A DNA stretch of 31,025 nucleotides from the IMG/VR virus record IMGVR_UViG_2802429232_000001, positions 1 to 31,025 of that record; one strand, written 5' to 3'. Of this stretch, positions 885 to 30,813 are shown piece by piece. Both the position numbers and the translations under genes were made by a program. The DNA comes from a virus. Its lineage: Duplodnaviria > Heunggongvirae > Uroviricota > Caudoviricetes. The number at the start of each line of letters is the position of its first letter. Positions within the stretch are counted from its first letter, which is position 1. The notes below the pieces were generated by a model. The model made no database searches. It saw only the letters and a list, made by a program, of their open reading frames with translations, and had not been told where the DNA came from.

Positions 885-3800
885 TCAAAGCTGACCAATC
901 CTAACTCGAAGGACATTATTGTCATCATAAACGTCAATCCTCTGACCATTTATAACCAATCTCCCATTGCCGCCACTATTGCTGTTGATCTCAAGCGTTC
1001 CATTTTTACCAAATCGCCATCCGGCTCGTCCGCTTACGAAGTTTGTTGATTGCAAGTCACCTACCTTTGCATTTGTGATAGTACCATCCTTAATATACGC
1101 ACCATTCATGTATGCAACGCTGTTTTCGATAACAAATGGTGTGGTGATCTTTCCGTTAACTGAGTTGACTAGACCAAATCGATCTGCTTGCACCAAAAAC
1201 TGGGAAAGCCCCGTGGTGTCAATTCCAAGCGCAATACCTGCGACATATTTTTGCCCACCACTTGTTGACGTTTCCATCTTCAACGTCCACGCGGTTGAAA
1301 CCTTTTTGTTAGTATCAGCAATAGCAGTTGCCTGCTCTTGAATTGTCGCTGTATTTCCATCAACTGATGCTTTTAAGGTGTCAATTCGTCCACTTAGAGC
1401 ATTGTCGGCGTTTGTGCGCACAGTCGCCTCAGACGTAATCGCGGCATTAATATCTTTGCTCGTTTGCGCCTGTAGATTAGTGATACTAGAAGCCAAAGCC
1501 GAATCAGCGTCAGTTCTGGCTTTCGTCTCTTCTGCTACAGCCGCCTTAATATCTTTACCCGTCTGGCTCTTCAATGTGGTTATCTGTTGTGCTAAAGATT
1601 CATCAGCAGTTGCTCGGGCAATTTTTTCTTCAGATATAGCTGCACTAATATCGCCTTCAATTTTGGCTTGTAACGATAGTATTTCTTTTGAAAGTGCTTC
1701 ATCGGCACTAGCTCGTGCCTCTTGTTCACTCACAATTGCGGCAGAAATATCATCGTTAATCTTTGATTCAAGTTTGGTGATTCTGCTTGCAATAGCATTA
1801 TCAGCATCTACACGAGCCGTTGTTTCTTCAGTGATTGAAGCTCTGATATCCTCATTTATTTCAGCGCGAATTTCTTCCATTTTCGTAGCCATTGCAGATA
1901 TATCGTCTGCAAAAGCCTTCTGAGTTGTGGTGATCTTCGCATTACTCACCATCTGCTTGTGCTGATCTTCATCCTGACGCAAAGCAAGATCGATGTTTGT
2001 TTTAGCCAATGCCTCAATGTTTGTCGTAACTTCGGCACTAGAACGTTCAACTTCAGCCACGGTTTTTTTCATTTCTTCAATGGTGGCTAAACTGCTATCT
2101 ACAGTTGACTTCATCGCCTCGATTTCTTTCGCGTTTGCCAAGTCACCCTCAACTCGTGCTTCACGCTCCTCCGCAATTAAAGCCGATGAATTGTCAAGTG
2201 CTGCATTTGCCGCCTCAACAGCTCCAGCTACAGCTTTACCCTGCTCTGATACAGTTTCCTGCAACTGAATTAAGGCAGCGTTAGAGTTTGCAACCTCCTT
2301 AAGTGCGTCTTCCACCTTGCTTACAGTACTGGAAACATCCGTTTTAAGATCGTTTTGAGCTTCTTCAAGCCGCCGATCTGTCTCTGTAAACTTGTCATCA
2401 AGGCTTTTCAGACTTTCATCCATCTGTTCATAGATGGAATCCACCGCCTCCTGAGATACTTTTGAGTCGATTTCCTCAAGTAAAGCCTGGCCAAGTTCAG
2501 AAGACGTAATTTTGCCTGTCAGGAACGACAGTACATCGCGAGTTGTCGCCTCTGTCCCCAAGTTTGAGTTCGGAGGACTTAACATACCTCGCTTGTTCGA
2601 TGCTCGAACCCAGTAATACCACGTTTCGCTATCCCCAAGACCAGCATGTGTAAAGGTGGTGCTTGCAGACTCTGCGATCAGTTTCGCTGTATCCAGATTG
2701 TTGGTCTGGGATGCGTAAACATTAATGTGATCAAGGTCTACCGAATCTGGATTAACCCAATTCAGTATCACATTACGATAGTCCCCAACGGCCGTTAATG
2801 ACGTTGGGGCATCCGGCGGTGTCATTGTGCCCAGCACCTGATAAACGGTACTGATAATCTCTGTTTTTTTACCGTTGAATGAAACCGCATACAGCTGGAA
2901 GTCGTAGCGTCCATTCTCCGCAACATTAACGATTTCGTATTGCTCTTCGGTTACACGCGCCGATTGCCAGTTCGATACATTGTTTTCATCAGAACGTCGC
3001 CAACTGATCCAATACTCTGGAGATTTCCCTTCCCATGTTGCAGTCAGTTTTACTGACAGGTTGCCAGGGCTTGAGAGATAAGTCCCTTCGGTGATTTGCA
3101 AATTAGACGGCTTGGAGTAAGTCGGGTCCAATACCGTCGTATTTTGCGGGATAAGCGTTGCACCATTGTCGATCGCCTCATATTTAGACGGATTGTTCTC
3201 AACAGCGGTGATGTCAAAGCTACCCGGCGTTTCCCCCTGCGCGATGTTAACGATGCGAACGCGCATAGGTTCGAGGTCTGGTTCTGTAATAGTCCAGACG
3301 CCGTTCAAAACAGGCGTCTCAGCCGAAGACAGGGCTTTTGAAAACGTAACTTTTGTTATATTTTCGCCAGTTTCAAGAACATCGCGTTCAACGATTTTGC
3401 CTTCCTGATTCAGTATTCGAATAAAGCAGCCGCCTTTGGCTAACGACACAGGCGCATCGAGTGTGACGCTGTTTTTGGTAAACGCCACAATTCGACCTGA
3501 GTTACGTTTGCCTGCGCGATATTTGTTCTGAATCAGAACGGTTTCACCAGGCATCAGAAATGACGCGTCTAAGCCGGCAGTAAATGTAATTACATCCGAC
3601 TCCATTCTGGCGGTATATAAAAGCCATAAACCAACTCGGTGAGCCTGCCCTCGGCTTGTACAGCCAAATGCTACGACTTCTGTCTTACGCTCACCATAAC
3701 GGCGCATTGCGTCCTGATCTTCAACGTACTCGATGTTTTGCTTATAACCGTCCTCCTTGTTGTTGTAGGTTACGAGCGCAACGGATGGGCGATCTTTACG

Positions 3801-5045
3801 CGCAGAACCTTTATAGGTAAACAATCCATCTTTGACGTTAGAGTTGGTAAACATCATTACCGGATCTGATGGGCTATCCTGCATGATGTTAACCATCCCA
3901 CCAGCCCAAAACACCATGCCGCGGAATGCTCCAGCAATATCCTGAATTAGCCGGTATGCGTCCTGTCGACTGGTGATCTGCGTATTGATTGCAAAGCGTT
4001 TCTCTTTGCCACCAAAGCCATCATCGACCTCTTCGTCACAATATCGACCAATCTGGTACAACTGGCCAAGGTCAATCATAGATTCCGACACATACTGACC
4101 AAGGCCATATCGAGCATTGGTCAGCAAATCAAAGAGAATCCACGCGGGGTTCGAAGAAGACAACAGCTTAAAAGTGCCATCCCATACCCCAGCGTAAGTG
4201 TTACTGGACTCGTTATAGTTTGAAGGTACTCGAATTTTTAGGCCACGCACCAGATAAGAGCGAGATGGCATGGTGCTGCCGAATTGCTCAGAGTTTACCT
4301 TCAATCCAACCAAAACAGAGTTTGGATAGTTCATCGGTGTATCGACAATTTCCCCGATTGAATCCACCCATGTATCGTTATAGAGATACTGGCTACTGTT
4401 ATCATCGGTAATACGGACTACACGAACCTTGTATGCGCGTCCAGGCTTAGGCAGCTTCAGCTCGTAGCTACGGTAATAAACGCCGGTCTTCTTTGCTGTT
4501 AGCTTAATGCCAACGCTTTTTTCACCTTCCGCGACCACATCTACAAATGTTGAGTCGCCATTTGCTATCTGGAACTTGTACTCAACAGTCGTACCGTTCG
4601 TGTCACCAGTTTTTTTATCTATGCTTCGCAAAGAAGGAAACTTCATGATGACACGAACCCGATCAGCTTCATCGTTATCGATTGAAACCGTTACATAATG
4701 TGTTTTTTTTAACTGGATATTGACGGATTTAGGCGTTTCAACGAAATCAAAGCCAGACATTGGAGTCTGGTCTTGTGAACCGTCGCGAAAATCCCATGTG
4801 ATTCCGCTGAAGTTGGAGGAACCGTCCTCATTTACAATCGGCAGATCGTCGATAAAAATAGATCTTGCGCCATTTACTAAGCCGCCAATTACCCCTTCCC
4901 CAAGAAGATCGAGGATAGCGGCCATTGCACGAGAATTTACGGTATCGTCGGCTTCAACCGGTGTACGGCTGGAGCTTTTGCTGCTTTTTTTACCACCCGC
5001 ACCGGCAATAAACAGCGGTAGCTTTTTCTTCTTGAACTGTTCCAT
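885..5045 (-). CDS. J: Central tail fibre / host specificity protein (lambda J-like) with FN3 domain and coiled-coil repeat insertion
   Basis: ORF track 885..5051 (1388 aa); start moved to ATG at 5045 (MEQF), the listed start being TTG. Conserved J blocks recalled from lambda: NYPNSVLVGLKVNSEQFGS, VPSNYN, GVWDGTFK, FGCTSRGQAHRVGLWLL, and C-terminal YVAGIALGIDTTGLSQFLVQADRFGLVN. Follows I/K/L/M as in lambda. Confidence 0.85.
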   Translation of the reverse strand: MEQFKKKKLPLFIAGAGGKKSSKSSSRTPVEADDTVNSRAMAAILDLLGEGVIGGLVNGARSIFIDDLPIVNEDGSSNFSGITWDFRDGSQDQTPMSGFDFVETPKSVNIQLKKTHYVTVSIDNDEADRVRVIMKFPSLRSIDKKTGDTNGTTVEYKFQIANGDSTFVDVVAEGEKSVGIKLTAKKTGVYYRSYELKLPKPGRAYKVRVVRITDDNSSQYLYNDTWVDSIGEIVDTPMNYPNSVLVGLKVNSEQFGSTMPSRSYLVRGLKIRVPSNYNESSNTYAGVWDGTFKLLSSSNPAWILFDLLTNARYGLGQYVSESMIDLGQLYQIGRYCDEEVDDGFGGKEKRFAINTQITSRQDAYRLIQDIAGAFRGMVFWAGGMVNIMQDSPSDPVMMFTNSNVKDGLFTYKGSARKDRPSVALVTYNNKEDGYKQNIEYVEDQDAMRRYGERKTEVVAFGCTSRGQAHRVGLWLLYTARMESDVITFTAGLDASFLMPGETVLIQNKYRAGKRNSGRIVAFTKNSVTLDAPVSLAKGGCFIRILNQEGKIVERDVLETGENITKVTFSKALSSAETPVLNGVWTITEPDLEPMRVRIVNIAQGETPGSFDITAVENNPSKYEAIDNGATLIPQNTTVLDPTYSKPSNLQITEGTYLSSPGNLSVKLTATWEGKSPEYWISWRRSDENNVSNWQSARVTEEQYEIVNVAENGRYDFQLYAVSFNGKKTEIISTVYQVLGTMTPPDAPTSLTAVGDYRNVILNWVNPDSVDLDHINVYASQTNNLDTAKLIAESASTTFTHAGLGDSETWYYWVRASNKRGMLSPPNSNLGTEATTRDVLSFLTGKITSSELGQALLEEIDSKVSQEAVDSIYEQMDESLKSLDDKFTETDRRLEEAQNDLKTDVSSTVSKVEDALKEVANSNAALIQLQETVSEQGKAVAGAVEAANAALDNSSALIAEEREARVEGDLANAKEIEAMKSTVDSSLATIEEMKKTVAEVERSSAEVTTNIEALAKTNIDLALRQDEDQHKQMVSNAKITTTQKAFADDISAMATKMEEIRAEINEDIRASITEETTARVDADNAIASRITKLESKINDDISAAIVSEQEARASADEALSKEILSLQAKIEGDISAAISEEKIARATADESLAQQITTLKSQTGKDIKAAVAEETKARTDADSALASSITNLQAQTSKDINAAITSEATVRTNADNALSGRIDTLKASVDGNTATIQEQATAIADTNKKVSTAWTLKMETSTSGGQKYVAGIALGIDTTGLSQFLVQADRFGLVNSVNGKITTPFVIENSVAYMNGAYIKDGTITNAKVGDLQSTNFVSGRAGWRFGKNGTLEINSNSGGNGRLVINGQRIDVYDDNNVLRVRIGQL
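1359..1853 (-). repeat. Five tandem, diverged 99-bp (33-aa) coding repeats inside J, within a longer coiled-coil segment (~1359-2500)
   Basis: Protein-level periodicity: EDIRASITEETTARVDADNAIASRITKLESKIN / DDISAAIVSEQEARASADEALSKEILSLQAKIE / GDISAAISEEKIARATADESLAQQITTLKSQTG / KDIKAAVAEETKARTDADSALASSITNLQAQTS / KDINAAITSEATVRTNADNALSGRIDTLKASVD. Coordinates derived from residue counts. Confidence 0.7.
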
Positions 5046-5062
5046 GTTCAAAAAATCCTTGT

Positions 5063-5656
5063 TTACATTAGCTGGTCAATCGTGATTGAAGAACTCACAA
5101 CCTGTGAGCCAACCAGAATTTCCTCGCCATAGATAAGTTGTACTGGGTTGCCCTGGTTTTCTGTATTTTGAGGGCCGTCGAAATAATAAGAGTTCGAGTT
5201 ATCTGCCTGTCTCACACTTTCGTTAGTGGCTTGCGGCGATATGATTTGTGATATGCCGCCCATCATCAGTGACAAACCGAGAGGTGCTAAAGCAGGCATC
5301 ACTACCGCCGATACAACCAACAAAGCGGCCCCTACTACCGTCTGAAACCACCCAAAAGCAGATCCACCGCTTCCTCGCGGAACAGGTGTAATGCGGATTT
5401 TGGCAATGTTGTCAGACTGCCCCATCATCTGATATTCACTTTCGTCAACAGACCACTTGTGGCCCTGTTTATTGGTGATCTGGATGTGGTAACTGTCATA
5501 GGTTTTGATATTGCGCTTCATCCATGCTTTAAACCCAGGCTTGTTGGCTTCAATTAAATCCAGAGCCTGTTTTGTATTGCGCACCTTTAGATGCCAGTGG
5601 CGACCAAAATGTTTAGCCATAGGTCCGCCAAGCTGCACATGAACTAACTCAGACAC
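5063..5656 (-). CDS. I: Tail assembly protein (lambda I-like)
   Basis: ORF track (197 aa). Sits between K and J and overlaps K's end as in lambda. Gly/Ala-rich hydrophobic central segment and C-terminal LIYGEEILVGSQVVS resemble lambda I (VLYGEMRVGSRVVS). Confidence 0.7.
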   Translation of the reverse strand: MSELVHVQLGGPMAKHFGRHWHLKVRNTKQALDLIEANKPGFKAWMKRNIKTYDSYHIQITNKQGHKWSVDESEYQMMGQSDNIAKIRITPVPRGSGGSAFGWFQTVVGAALLVVSAVVMPALAPLGLSLMMGGISQIISPQATNESVRQADNSNSYYFDGPQNTENQGNPVQLIYGEEILVGSQVVSSSITIDQLM

Positions 5657-6441
5657 GTCTCATCTCCCTTGAGCAAGTCTCTGTGACGCAAGTGATGCGT
5701 CGTATGTTTCTGATACATTCCGCCGTAATAAGCACGACAACTAAGACGGTCGATCTGGTGATGAAGAATCATTCCATCGCCGATATAAACCGCGCAGTGA
5801 TCTGGCATTTTCCCGTATTGAATAAAGAAGACGTCCCCACGTTGAGGCTCTGTTCCAGGCGCAAGCCGTACCAACCCTTCGTTTCGGTAGTTCTGGTCGA
5901 GAATGTCGTTATCGCCGGTGTACCACGATGGAATATGCAGGTGTGCGTTCGGGTTAAGCTCGACGTTAAACTCACGCTTCAAATAGTCCCGACACAACAT
6001 CCAGCAATCGAATACGCCAAATACATACGGTCTACCCAGGTATGGCATTTCGAAACCATCAGGTGTGATCACATTCATCTCGCTAAAATGGAAAGGGGCA
6101 TCTCCCTCAACATTCTTGCGAATAGCCAGAATCATCCACGGAACTTCCGTCGCTTCACAGCCTGCACGATCGGCATCAGATGCTTCTGCTGATTCATCAG
6201 TATGTGAATGCCAGATTGCGATTACGTCACCTGCATCCTCTGCCGCTATAATGTCGTCAACGTGCATTACAAAAGTGTTCTGCGGGTTCTCCGAAACATT
6301 TCGCGCTTCCATAAAGCGATATTTGTCGCCATTAGTTCTCACCAGAAAGCCACACGCTTCATTAGGGTAGCGATTTATGGCGCAGAGATAGATTTGCTGC
6401 ATAACATCAGAGCCAAGCTCAGGGATTGCTTTATTACCCAT
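5644..6441 (-). CDS. K: Tail tip assembly protein (lambda K-like) with MPN/JAMM and NlpC/P60 domains
   Basis: ORF track 5644..6468; start moved to second Met (MGNKAIPELG) at 6441, preceded by GGAG. Exact JAMM motif HxHx7Sx2D in IWHSHTDESAEASDAD; Cys (FDCWMLCRDY) and downstream His consistent with NlpC/P60. Confidence 0.8.
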   Translation of the reverse strand: MGNKAIPELGSDVMQQIYLCAINRYPNEACGFLVRTNGDKYRFMEARNVSENPQNTFVMHVDDIIAAEDAGDVIAIWHSHTDESAEASDADRAGCEATEVPWMILAIRKNVEGDAPFHFSEMNVITPDGFEMPYLGRPYVFGVFDCWMLCRDYLKREFNVELNPNAHLHIPSWYTGDNDILDQNYRNEGLVRLAPGTEPQRGDVFFIQYGKMPDHCAVYIGDGMILHHQIDRLSCRAYYGGMYQKHTTHHLRHRDLLKGDETCLS

Positions 6442-28705: not shown

Positions 28706-28710
28706 TAGTC

Positions 28711-28740
28711 TACATGCAGGTGTATGAGAGCACCTGCATG
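28711..28740 (+). terminator. 11-bp perfect hairpin ACATGCAGGTG-N8-CACCTGCATGT after the 189-aa gene (terminator-like or operator)
   Basis: Read directly; the T-run (TTTTTT) sits ~13 nt downstream rather than adjacent, so not a textbook intrinsic terminator. Confidence 0.4.
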
Positions 28741-28850
28741 TGACATTCATCACATTTTTTGAAGTACACACCTCCGGCTGAAAAAATTTCTTGATTGGCT
28801 GAACGATATTTGTAGGCTTTTCAATTGATAACTAAGGTCGGATACTGTAG

Positions 28851-29354: not shown

Positions 29355-29954
29355 ATGAAAATGAAACTTTCGTTACTCCTTGCTTGTATATGCCTCCCGG
29401 CGTTTTCCGCCAACGCATTATCAGATTTCGTCTCTGACATGCAAAAAACGTACAGCATGTATACTTCTGAAGACGTACTAAAATACAAATCACGAGGTCT
29501 GATTCAACCAGTCTGGTATAGATTCTCAGATAACGCAGAAGAAACAATACTTCATGCAGGAAAAGAAAGATTACGGTTGCAAATTAACGGGACCGCAGTA
29601 CCAGAAAACGCTAATGTAAGCTCTAACGAGGCCATGAAGCCATCTGGAATTGTTTTAGAAATTCAAGACGGTACACTCTATTGTGATGAAATGGCTACAA
29701 CGGGTTGCCAAGTGAACATCAGAGTTGGCAATGAAGAACCTATTGTCACTTATGCTAAGACTGAAGGGAATACCAGTGGGAAGGTATTGTTTATTGATGA
29801 AAACACAACAAAACGTATCGTTCGCGACATCAAGAAAACAACGAACTCTAAATCCGTCGATAAAAAAATCTATGTTGAAGTCCCCTTCTTGGTCGTTGGT
29901 AACAAAGAATTTAAATTTGGATTGCTGAAAACACCTCTAAGAGTATCAGAATGA
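29355..29954 (+). CDS. Secreted protein or lipoprotein (signal peptide MKMKLSLLLACICLPAFSANA)
   Basis: ORF track 29340..29954 begins at a TTG; first ATG at 29355 gives a classic signal peptide with a possible lipobox (LLAC) or signal peptidase I site (AFSA-NA). Confidence 0.5.
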   Translation: MKMKLSLLLACICLPAFSANALSDFVSDMQKTYSMYTSEDVLKYKSRGLIQPVWYRFSDNAEETILHAGKERLRLQINGTAVPENANVSSNEAMKPSGIVLEIQDGTLYCDEMATTGCQVNIRVGNEEPIVTYAKTEGNTSGKVLFIDENTTKRIVRDIKKTTNSKSVDKKIYVEVPFLVVGNKEFKFGLLKTPLRVSE

Positions 29955-30472
29955 GAACATTGGACATCACCTACGGCATACCGGCTGAAGTATGGCCGCG
30001 AAACTACGAACATGCTGAACGCACCTTGCTCTTCTGGCGGAGTGCTCAATTTCCTGTAAGAGTCACTCTCGAAGACGGCCAAGTGTTTTGCATGTATGTC
30101 TACGGGCTGTTGAGCGCAAGAAATAAGCTGAACCTCACACCAGATCCGTTTAGCAACACAAATCGTGTAAGGCTCCCTCTTGAGCGCATTAGCACAATTG
30201 AGTCAGGCATAGAAGAGGTTGACACTTCATTCACAGGTCGACTAACACTGAACAATGAACAGATGGTTAATCAGCCATCACGCCGTGACTTTTTTGCGAT
30301 ATGTCGCAAGGCTTATCAAAACGACCAATCTATAAGGGTCTACATGGCAGACGGTCGTGAAATAGAAGGGGTATCAAGAGGCGTTGATGCTTGCCAGGTC
30401 ACTCTTAAGTTAGAAGACGGCAGAAAAATACTTGTTTTCTTCGATTGGGTTGAACGAATTTTACCTTTTTGA
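29951..30472 (+). CDS. Protein with two Rof/YaeO-like repeats (putative Rho-interacting Sm-like fold)
   Basis: ORF track (173 aa); start overlaps upstream stop (ATGA). Both halves carry hydrophobic-x-hydrophobic-x-(E/K)DG cores (RVTLEDGQVF, RVYMADGREIEG, QVTLKLEDGRKILVF) and a tail RVRLPLERISTIES that resemble E. coli Rof (LTLELKDGEKLQAKA, RELRLDKITSFS) as I recall it. Confidence 0.45.
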   Translation: MRTLDITYGIPAEVWPRNYEHAERTLLFWRSAQFPVRVTLEDGQVFCMYVYGLLSARNKLNLTPDPFSNTNRVRLPLERISTIESGIEEVDTSFTGRLTLNNEQMVNQPSRRDFFAICRKAYQNDQSIRVYMADGREIEGVSRGVDACQVTLKLEDGRKILVFFDWVERILPF

Positions 30473-30475
30473 GTT

Positions 30476-30772
30476 ATGAAATCGATACTATTGACATCTT
30501 TATTTTTAGTTTACTCAATTTCGGCCAATGCAAAGGATGATATCGCAATTATTCAGTCGCTGATGAATGACGTATGCTCAACGTCTCAGAATGTACCAGT
30601 TTGCATGTTTAAACTTTCAGCAGCTGTAAAACTAGGGATAAACATTGGTAAGACCGCTCAACTATGTGAACAAGTGGAAAATTATGAACCATGTGAATCG
30701 AACAACTCTTCTGTGCAGTTCGTTGATGCGTTATTTGACACCAATCGTAAGGCTGTAGAGTCAGTCCGATAA
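30476..30772 (+). CDS. Small secreted Cys-containing protein (signal peptide MKSILLTSLFLVYSISANA)
   Basis: ORF track (98 aa); cleavable signal peptide; mature part has four Cys. Confidence 0.5.
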   Translation: MKSILLTSLFLVYSISANAKDDIAIIQSLMNDVCSTSQNVPVCMFKLSAAVKLGINIGKTAQLCEQVENYEPCESNNSSVQFVDALFDTNRKAVESVR

Positions 30773-30784
30773 ATGTATAAGGGT

Positions 30785-30813
30785 AATAACCGGCTAAGTC
30801 CGGTTATTTTTTT
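30785..30813 (+). terminator. Intrinsic terminator closing the plus-strand accessory operon
   Basis: AATAACCGG-ctaagt-CCGGTTATT followed directly by TTTTTTT, 13 nt after the last stop codon. Confidence 0.75.

Follow-up and report, generated by a model that had tools for sequence, protein, structure and literature searches.

The window analysed here is a stretch of 31,025 nucleotides (nt) of viral DNA (Caudoviricetes; positions 1 to 31,025 of the IMG/VR record IMGVR_UViG_2802429232_000001) which, judged by its sequence, is part of an SSU5-like phage-plasmid. Near its end lie two open reading frames (ORFs), ORF1 and ORF3, which an earlier inspection of the same DNA (the original prediction) had described as genes for two signal-peptide proteins, the first with a possible lipobox, and had put forward as candidate superinfection-exclusion or envelope-modifying factors. 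The positions that it gave for both ORFs, which lie on the plus strand, were correct (Table 1), while the gene lying between them, translationally coupled to both, had been overlooked. The product of this gene matched the Pfam family PF03614 (Flag1_repress, FljA) with an expectation value (E) of 1.9e-68 over profile positions 1-170 of 170, at a score of 230 bits against a gathering cut-off of 24, and also matched phrog_1444. By this profile match it belongs, over its full length, to the FljA family, the "repressor of phase-1 flagellin" family.

Comparison of the gene boundaries showed that P162, ORF1, the FljA-like gene and ORF3 form a compact accessory operon of low G+C content (GC) that adjoins the helicase and ParB-like genes. 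The end of P162 is separated from ORF1 by 15 nt, the stop codon of ORF1 overlaps the start codon of the FljA-like gene (ATGA), and 3 nt lie between the stop codon of the FljA-like gene and ORF3. The four genes likely constitute a single transcription unit, of which P162 is probably the first gene.

Table 1. Coordinates, in the window, of the operon and of the other features discussed (aa, amino acids; slots A and B are defined in the text)
Feature	Position	Strand	Description
ORF1	29355..29954	+	199-aa precursor, slot A; signal peptide 29355-29417
FljA-family gene	29951..30472	+	PF03614 full-length; anchor of the locus
ORF3	30476..30772	+	98-aa precursor, slot B; signal peptide 30476-30532
Intrinsic terminator	30785..30808	+	9-bp stem followed by a T-run; closes the operon
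P162	28851..29339	+	162-aa cytoplasmic protein, 29% GC (from the ORF list and GC)
Inverted repeat, perfect, 10 bp	28713..28740	+	directly after the P199 stop (from sequence and fold)
P92	27795..28073	+	92-aa gene after the helicase gene
J	885..5051	-	lambda-type C-terminal tip domain PF09327

We then searched the window for signal peptides with a rule that called for a basic n-region, a hydrophobic core of ~10-15 residues, small residues at positions -3 and -1 and no acidic residue ahead of the cleavage site. Of 296 candidate ORFs in the window that start with ATG and encode 60 aa or more, only ORF1 and ORF3 passed this rule, so that their signal peptides are not a chance feature. The N-termini of ORF1 (MKMKLSLLLACICLPAFSANA↓LSD) and ORF3 (MKSILLTSLFLVYSISANA↓KDD, the arrow marking cleavage as assigned by the -3/-1 rule) both have a basic start, an unbroken hydrophobic core and an A-x-A site. 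Every full-length homologue, even at 21-23% identity, had a signal peptide, with the residues themselves varying: relatives of ORF1 begin, for example, with MTRLAVLTITSILSFSANA↓LSD, a more distant one begins with MNKKYTLVATPLLVISGFSQA↓DW, and those of ORF3 begin with MKAILLSSILLASSTAASA↓MDY, MKTVAALTFLTFIFSSSAFS↓QEN and MKFLLLAPILLFSSIVGA↓ETQ. The canonical signal peptides that had been claimed for both ORFs were thus borne out, by the scan, which singled out these two genes, and by their conservation in homologues.

The lipobox suggested for ORF1 fared less well. The pattern applied was [LVI][ASTVI][GAS]C; its Cys should lie at a distance of ~15-35 residues from the N-terminus and be kept in homologues. 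The letters LLAC are literally present in ORF1, but their Cys is residue 11, too near the N-terminus, and the Leu at position -2 is atypical. Homologues keep neither of the two Cys of LLACIC (that of LLAC is absent from most of them), and the part that is conserved is FSANA↓(L/V)SD. ORF1 was rejected as a lipoprotein on these grounds. The signal peptide of ORF3 contains no Cys. Since the lipobox of ORF1 is unconserved and too near the N-terminus, both products are predicted to be soluble in the periplasm, and the combination of Sec signal peptides bearing signal peptidase I sites with conserved Cys pairs leads to the prediction of soluble, disulfide-bonded periplasmic proteins, not lipoproteins. 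We hold this prediction, together with the anatomy of the locus, with high confidence.

Both ORFs are, at the sequence level, genuine genes under purifying selection, the ratio of non-synonymous to synonymous substitution rates (dN/dS) being 0.12 for ORF1 and 0.30 for ORF3. The mature form of ORF1 is ~178 aa long with an invariant Cys pair (C110/C118), and that of ORF3 is ~79 aa long with four invariant Cys and one invariant Gly. The ORF1 family comprised 14 clusters among 5.8 billion proteins and gave 8 profile matches among 1.8 billion representatives; all the matches in these protein collections came from these phage-plasmids, and 65 plasmid records contain ORF1. Genes of the ORF3 type were found in 246 plasmid records from Escherichia, Klebsiella and Salmonella, 90 of them in Klebsiella, and a profile search with the ORF3 superfamily returned phage-plasmid proteins only. 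A tblastn search with ORF1 and ORF3 of 50,697 phage records, at E up to 10, returned only records of the same kind of phage-plasmid (CMS-2020a and a Klebsiella phage) and otherwise noise.

The plasmid record to which the window belongs has no annotated coding sequence for ORF3, and other records (loci L003, L006 and L007) call genes of this type from an internal Met, which gives products of 59 or 83 aa. The PHROG profiles of the ORF3 type likewise begin past the signal peptide. As a result of these missing calls and internal starts, public annotation and the PHROG profile are without the signal peptide of ORF3-type genes.

The arrangement of the locus was then compared in 60 related loci, collected from phages, plasmids, IMG/VR and assemblies and mapped by tblastn. 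These loci are phylogenetically non-independent, and the counts given for them should therefore be read as a pattern and not as frequencies. The gene order was always helicase, P92, optional P199 and P162-like genes, slot A, FljA-like gene, slot B, terminator and P216. The FljA-like gene is the fixed element, being present in all 60 loci, those of Klebsiella included, while slot A is filled in 57 and slot B in 24 of them.

Slot A is occupied by at least four families of exported proteins without detectable mutual similarity. The ORF1 family (14 loci), which overlaps the start of the FljA-like gene, and the 140-aa SSU5-type lipoprotein (20 loci) lie on the same strand as that gene, and the pKPHS1-type lipoprotein related to the SSU5 type (11 loci), the 266-aa Cyrano-type lipoprotein (8 loci) and a distant ORF1 relative, P0028 (4 loci), lie on the opposite strand. 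The slot-A lipoproteins have proper lipoboxes (LITAC, LIGC and VAGC). Those of phrog_890 (SSU5_122 type, weakly DUF2846-like) take the same slot as ORF1 in SSU5, pKPHS1 and many phage-plasmids and, unlike ORF1, are true lipoproteins; a common origin of the two was considered and rejected, the hhalign probability being 0.8%. In slot B there are three subfamilies of a rapidly diverging family, with 21-23% mutual identity, which have a signal peptide and four Cys in common; otherwise the slot is cleanly empty (36 of 60 loci).

The occupants of the slots were found in varying combinations. One locus (L027) has an identical ORF3 and identical P92 and P199, a different slot-A gene and a FljA-like gene that is 75% identical, and a FljA allele of 93% identity was found with three different slot-A families. 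To go by these combinations, the modules of the locus are shuffled between elements. In Klebsiella and Enterobacter plasmids (hits H47-H49), only the last 66 residues of ORF1 were matched, at 50% identity and in no annotated gene; these matches look like remnants of an ORF1-type gene after replacement of the slot-A gene.

The terminator 24-mer (AATAACCGGCTAAGTCCGGTTATT) was found in 55 of 56 SSU5-type loci with 0-2 mismatches, mostly in the loop, and stands either after the slot-B gene or, when slot B is empty, ~15 nt after the stop codon of the FljA-like gene. The presence of the same terminator right after the FljA-like gene when slot B is empty makes ORF3 a clean optional last gene. This terminator has stayed nearly invariant in phage-plasmids of E. 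coli, Klebsiella and Salmonella in which the proteins encoded on either side of it share only 50-70% identity. At the other end, the arms of the inverted repeat (CATGCAGGTG...CACCTGCATG) are not immediately followed by a T-run, and the fold of positions 28706-28770 has an energy of about -25 kcal/mol. Conceivable roles of this repeat are those of a terminator, of an element for RNA stability or of a binding site for a protein, and the transcription unit may have its 5' boundary here. No Rfam element was found in the 26-31 kb region.

P162 is optional in the relatives and its PHROGs match is phrog_25050, a family of unknown function. In divergent phage-plasmids its place is taken by remote homologues, with 27% identity and an E of 3e-6 in locus L008 and an E of 7e-4 in locus L007; in L008 the homologue overlaps the start of the FljA-like gene. 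The N-terminus of P162 gave a sub-threshold YmgB/AriR-like match (E 0.0012).

The 26-31 kb region of the window is 90-96% identical to the Escherichia phages CMS-2020a, PhiR41_1 and Cyrano and 80% identical to Salmonella phage SSU5; of these, PhiR41_1, which infects E. coli K-12, has no ORF1. The E. coli plasmid pAVS0747-B (NZ_CP124469.1; 105 kb, non-mobilizable) encodes ORF1 and ORF3 proteins with 100% identity to those of the window. The minus strand of the window carries a tail module of the lambda type, with M, L, K (JAB and NlpC/P60), I, the tape-measure protein and J. From 24 kb on, there follow an ABC-type ATPase, two ParB-like genes, a DEAD-box helicase and then small genes on the plus strand. 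Past the helicase the GC drops from ~47% to 29-39%, and it is 38-39% in the ORF1/ORF3 cassette as compared with 47% in the helicase. J is mosaic (cf. loci L067 and L068), its distal 590 residues being 65-78% identical in other plasmids and the downstream fibre genes wholly different between them.

Just beyond the start of the window, on the same plasmid (L061, positions 1486-3385), a lysis block adjoins the tail fibres. It encodes membrane proteins of 99 and 111 aa, a 230-aa endolysin-like protein with a C-terminal hydrophobic segment, and an 83-aa i-spanin-like protein with an embedded 71-aa o-spanin-like lipoprotein (lipobox ISGC). A reading of the accessory genes as lysis genes was dropped, the lysis cassette sitting by the tail fibres instead.

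The cassette region was detected in 219 of 5426 complete E. coli genomes, every time on a plasmid and never on the chromosome; with a tail-tip query, 1076 plasmids were matched. Klebsiella plasmids, including pKPHS1, contain the locus, and homologues of ORF3 are present in Salmonella plasmids of ~106.7 kb, the size of pHCM2 of S. Typhi. SSU5-like phage-plasmids are very frequent in clinical Enterobacteriaceae.

Expression of an equivalent locus could be followed in published data on Cyrano lysogens of E. coli LF82. The FljA-like gene CYRAN_114 had values of 4.2 (log2 fragments per kilobase per million reads, fpkm) in overnight cultures in LB medium and of 6.9-8.1 in the B1, B6, MB1 and MB6 samples, and the slot-A lipoprotein gene CYRAN_115 had values of 4.7-5.0 and 7.9-9.4, respectively (PMC9928086 S1 Table). 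The ParB-like and neighbouring genes of Cyrano were at 2.3-5.7 across the samples, and most of the listed genes were at ~3-6 (PMC9928086 S1 Table). The B1, B6, MB1 and MB6 samples are taken to be cell-culture and macrophage conditions. In this relative of the window, transcripts of the locus are thus made while the plasmid is resident. P92 is 100% identical to CYRAN_117 of Cyrano, a reported moron expressed 12-fold over background in LF82 lysogens (PMC9928086).

A role of the two proteins in the envelope of the carrier cell is reasonable, since both are exported, both lie in an accessory stretch and the equivalent locus of Cyrano is transcribed in lysogens. In this respect the original prediction of envelope factors found support, the proteins being exported and encoded in an accessory stretch of low GC on a phage-plasmid that is temperate and of the siphovirus type, but the receptor block of the Cor/Llp type that it attached to them did not. 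In our preferred reading, the cassette would be expressed from the resident plasmid in the manner of a moron, and its exported products may serve as binding or "shield" proteins within the carrier cell's periplasm. Their likeliest target would be a superinfecting phage after adsorption, at the stage of cell-wall penetration or DNA delivery, with an action like that of P1 Sim or of T4 Spackle and Imm and not like the outer-membrane receptor masking of Cor and Llp. The replacement of genes by non-homologous ones is typical of genes in conflict with competitors, and the swapping of non-homologous genes in slot A, together with the restriction of the families to phages, points to a conflict function. 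This protective post-adsorption exclusion mechanism is offered tentatively, and its chances are well below even. Taken as a whole, with the anatomy and export blended with the mechanism, the reading is the best explanation that we have, if one to which we give somewhat less than an even chance.

Several results weigh against this preferred reading. Searches of Pfam, NCBIfam and PADLOC gave no significant match for ORF1 or ORF3 (the only NCBIfam match had an E of 0.099), PHROGs returned families of unknown function only, and the PADLOC defence models at E up to 0.1 matched neither ORF1, the FljA-like gene nor ORF3. Profile searches of PDB sequences were empty, and Foldseek searches of the PDB were insignificant. 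Structural support for ORF1 is weak, only one of five models being confident: its AlphaFold2 model is beta-rich, with a predicted local distance difference test score (pLDDT) of 80.7, and matched nothing significantly among PDB folds (best E 0.03, template-modelling score (TM) ~0.2), while in BFVD it matched only uncharacterised proteins of T4-like phages, with a TM of 0.5-0.64 (0.5-0.58 for those of KP15 and RB16). The ORF3 model, with three helices and a disordered middle, is of low confidence (pLDDT 64), and with it Foldseek found nothing in the PDB below an E of 2.7 and no match to the Spackle fold, a result that, with such a model, speaks neither for nor against a likeness to Spackle.

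The dN/dS of both genes is below 1 overall and gives no sign of diversifying selection within alleles, the 60 loci are, as said above, phylogenetically non-independent, and a sigma-70 promoter was looked for and none that was convincing was found. The expression data also count on this side: they come from Cyrano, in which slot A is filled by another gene and slot B by none, and in overnight LB cultures CYRAN_114 and CYRAN_115 were at 1.8 and 2.9 times background, respectively, which is under the five-fold cut-off for morons (PMC9928086).

Comparison with the alternatives nevertheless leaves post-adsorption exclusion as the best of the mechanisms considered, with some probability left for explanations of other kinds. 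The original prediction likened the two proteins to Cor and Llp, which would make them blockers of the receptor that the phage itself uses on the outer membrane. Their predicted export is in line with this, and the tip domain of J is of the kind seen in phages that use outer-membrane proteins. Neither protein, however, has a functional lipobox or any similarity to Cor, Llp or a named family in the searches listed above, and at 29.3-30.8 kb both lie in the ParB/helicase arm, ~25 kb from J and with the fibres beyond the window start. A blocker of its own receptor should also co-vary with the receptor-binding protein, and ORF1 does not.

In pEC7518-111k and NZ_CP062814, ORF1 has an identity of at least 99.5% (in pEC7518-111k the cassette as a whole reaches 99.9%) while the distal regions of J differ: the first 800 residues are 99.5-100% identical, the middle is only 65% identical and the C-terminus is 78% identical in one plasmid and interrupted by IS1203 in pEC7518-111k, and both plasmids are without the 346-aa fibre and its 93-aa neighbour. 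In CP100028, on the contrary, the C-terminus of J is 99.3% identical and ORF1 only 52.6% identical. Of all the explanations weighed, we consider receptor blocking the least credible. A service in the lytic cycle, as an antiholin-like timer of lysis or in a periplasmic step of virion release, is scarcely more probable. Periplasmic phage proteins such as T4 RI exist and offer a precedent, and the genes lie on the same strand as the helicase block, but a complete lysis block (holin-like, endolysin, i-/o-spanin) is located elsewhere, 36 of 60 loci do without a slot-B gene, slot A varies among families that have no detectable similarity, and the Cyrano equivalents are transcribed in lysogens, in which the neighbouring ParB-like and ABC-ATPase genes are near background.

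The other two alternatives are unlikely but deserve more weight. The exported proteins might share a pathway with the FljA-like protein in remodelling the flagellum or envelope of the carrier cell: the latter would block flagellin translation, a periplasmic partner would interfere with or sense flagellar or envelope assembly, and the outcome would be reduced motility, less exposure of flagellin and lower susceptibility to flagellotropic phages. The full-length FljA-family match speaks for this, as do the translational coupling of ORF1 and ORF3 to the FljA-like gene, the presence of ORF3-superfamily genes directly downstream of it even when the FljA-like proteins are only 38% identical, and the fact that an exported protein adjoins it in 57 of 60 loci, whatever the orientation. 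Klebsiella, however, is normally non-flagellate, and the cassette is abundant in its plasmids (the 90 ORF3 records). Since Klebsiella plasmids also carry the FljA-like gene, a role confined to flagellin is doubtful, and it is equally doubtful that flagellin mRNA is the target of the FljA-like protein in Klebsiella. No sigma-28 (flagellar class-3) promoter was found upstream on the plus strand, the slot-A and FljA alleles are unlinked, slot B is mostly empty, no fold match to flagellar proteins was obtained and no paper describing such an effect was found, so that we think this explanation improbable.

A slightly better chance, although still a low one, is given to periplasmic immunity proteins or inhibitors directed against attack other than by phages (cell-wall effectors of the type VI secretion system, bacteriocins or host lysozyme), that is, to host fitness genes. 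Periplasmic immunity proteins and lysozyme inhibitors are small, exported, disulfide-bonded proteins, either soluble or lipoproteins, and the slot proteins have the same general make-up; their alleles are swappable on a mobile element, and the Cyrano equivalents are upregulated in the B1, B6, MB1 and MB6 samples. Opposed to this are the searches of Pfam, NCBIfam, PADLOC and PDB, in which no family of immunity proteins or inhibitors was matched, the lack of a cognate effector gene nearby, and the confinement of the families to one phage-plasmid lineage, whereas immunity genes normally track widespread effectors.

The FljA-family protein, as an RNA-binding repressor, and its interchangeable exported neighbours could also be parts of a single lysogenic-conversion module of SSU5-like phage-plasmids, which we regard as a long shot. 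If this were true, the module would silence flagellin synthesis while remodelling or guarding the periplasm, the phage-plasmid would control the motility of its host, the exposure of flagellar antigen and the susceptibility to competitors that depend on the flagellum or the envelope, and the module would have been retargeted in the non-flagellate Klebsiella.

A further lead concerns the slot-B superfamily and T4 Vs, whose gene vs lies at positions 5387-5734 on the minus strand of the T4 record used (L066). The sister slot-B subfamily matched phrog_1256 (valyl tRNA synthetase modifier) with an E of 1.8e-5 and, weakly, PF26829 (ValRS_modifier), a family that appears to be missing from the Pfam set searched with ORF3, the sister allele having given no such match in it. 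ORF3 is tied to this subfamily through phrog_27673 (E 0.0022) and the shared invariant Cys, and itself gave no direct match to the T4 Vs family. With hhalign, the ORF3 superfamily aligned with T4 Vs at a probability of 58% and an E of 1e-4. T4 Vs has, like the slot-B superfamily, a signal-peptide-like start (MTKILVLCIGLISFSASASA↓D) and four Cys in two pairs, but most of the alignment falls on the signal peptide and the first Cys pair, and the spacing of the Cys pairs differs by ~20 residues. The annotated function of T4 Vs as a modifier of valyl-tRNA synthetase is cytoplasmic and fits poorly with an exported protein; its signal-peptide-like start and its four paired Cys in turn make it a poor fit with that annotated role. 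A distant relationship between the ORF3 superfamily and T4 Vs is suggestive but not established by these alignments.

The finding is real but modest: a widespread locus is defined and the first reading of it is corrected, in that the proteins are predicted not to be lipoproteins and not to be of the Cor/Llp kind. The literature that we searched contained no paper linking SSU5-type phage-plasmids to FljA, to these proteins or to exclusion. Relative to that literature, the two families, their fixed pairing with a FljA-like gene and the two-slot architecture are new, while exported accessory proteins of temperate phages are already familiar as a kind. What is gained is a testable map of the locus, a model (Cor/Llp) that can be set aside and, for genes of the ORF3 type, a corrected gene model that includes the signal peptide, which annotation usually trims or omits. 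The locus is a good candidate for an effect of the resident plasmid on its host, be it phage exclusion, envelope protection or the control of motility and antigen.

Comparison with known systems places the locus between several of them. T5 Llp and the Cor proteins of phi80, T1 and N15 are, like ORF1 and ORF3, small exported proteins of siphoviruses with tail tips of the lambda or T5 type, and they are outer-membrane lipoproteins that protect the carrier cell by blocking the receptor. ORF1 and ORF3, unlike Cor and Llp, are not predicted lipoproteins, have no homology to them and do not lie beside the receptor-binding genes, whose alleles they do not track. P1 Sim, T4 Spackle and Imm are periplasmic or membrane exclusion proteins that act after adsorption. 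Sim is a periplasmic protein of ~25 kDa, processed from a signal-peptide precursor and encoded by a phage-plasmid, and Spackle (Sp) is made as a precursor of ~97 aa with a signal peptide, its mature form being helical and disulfide-bonded. No sequence similarity between these proteins and ORF1 or ORF3 was found in the tblastn search of phage records; Sim resembles ORF1, and Spackle resembles ORF3, in size and location, a likeness that is one of analogy only. In Salmonella fljBA, as in this locus, a gene for an exported or secreted protein is located immediately upstream of fljA or the FljA-like gene. The locus described here differs from fljBA in being without a flagellin gene, the hin invertase and a sigma-28 promoter, and its FljA-like gene, unlike Salmonella FljA, is carried on phage-plasmids, including those of Klebsiella.

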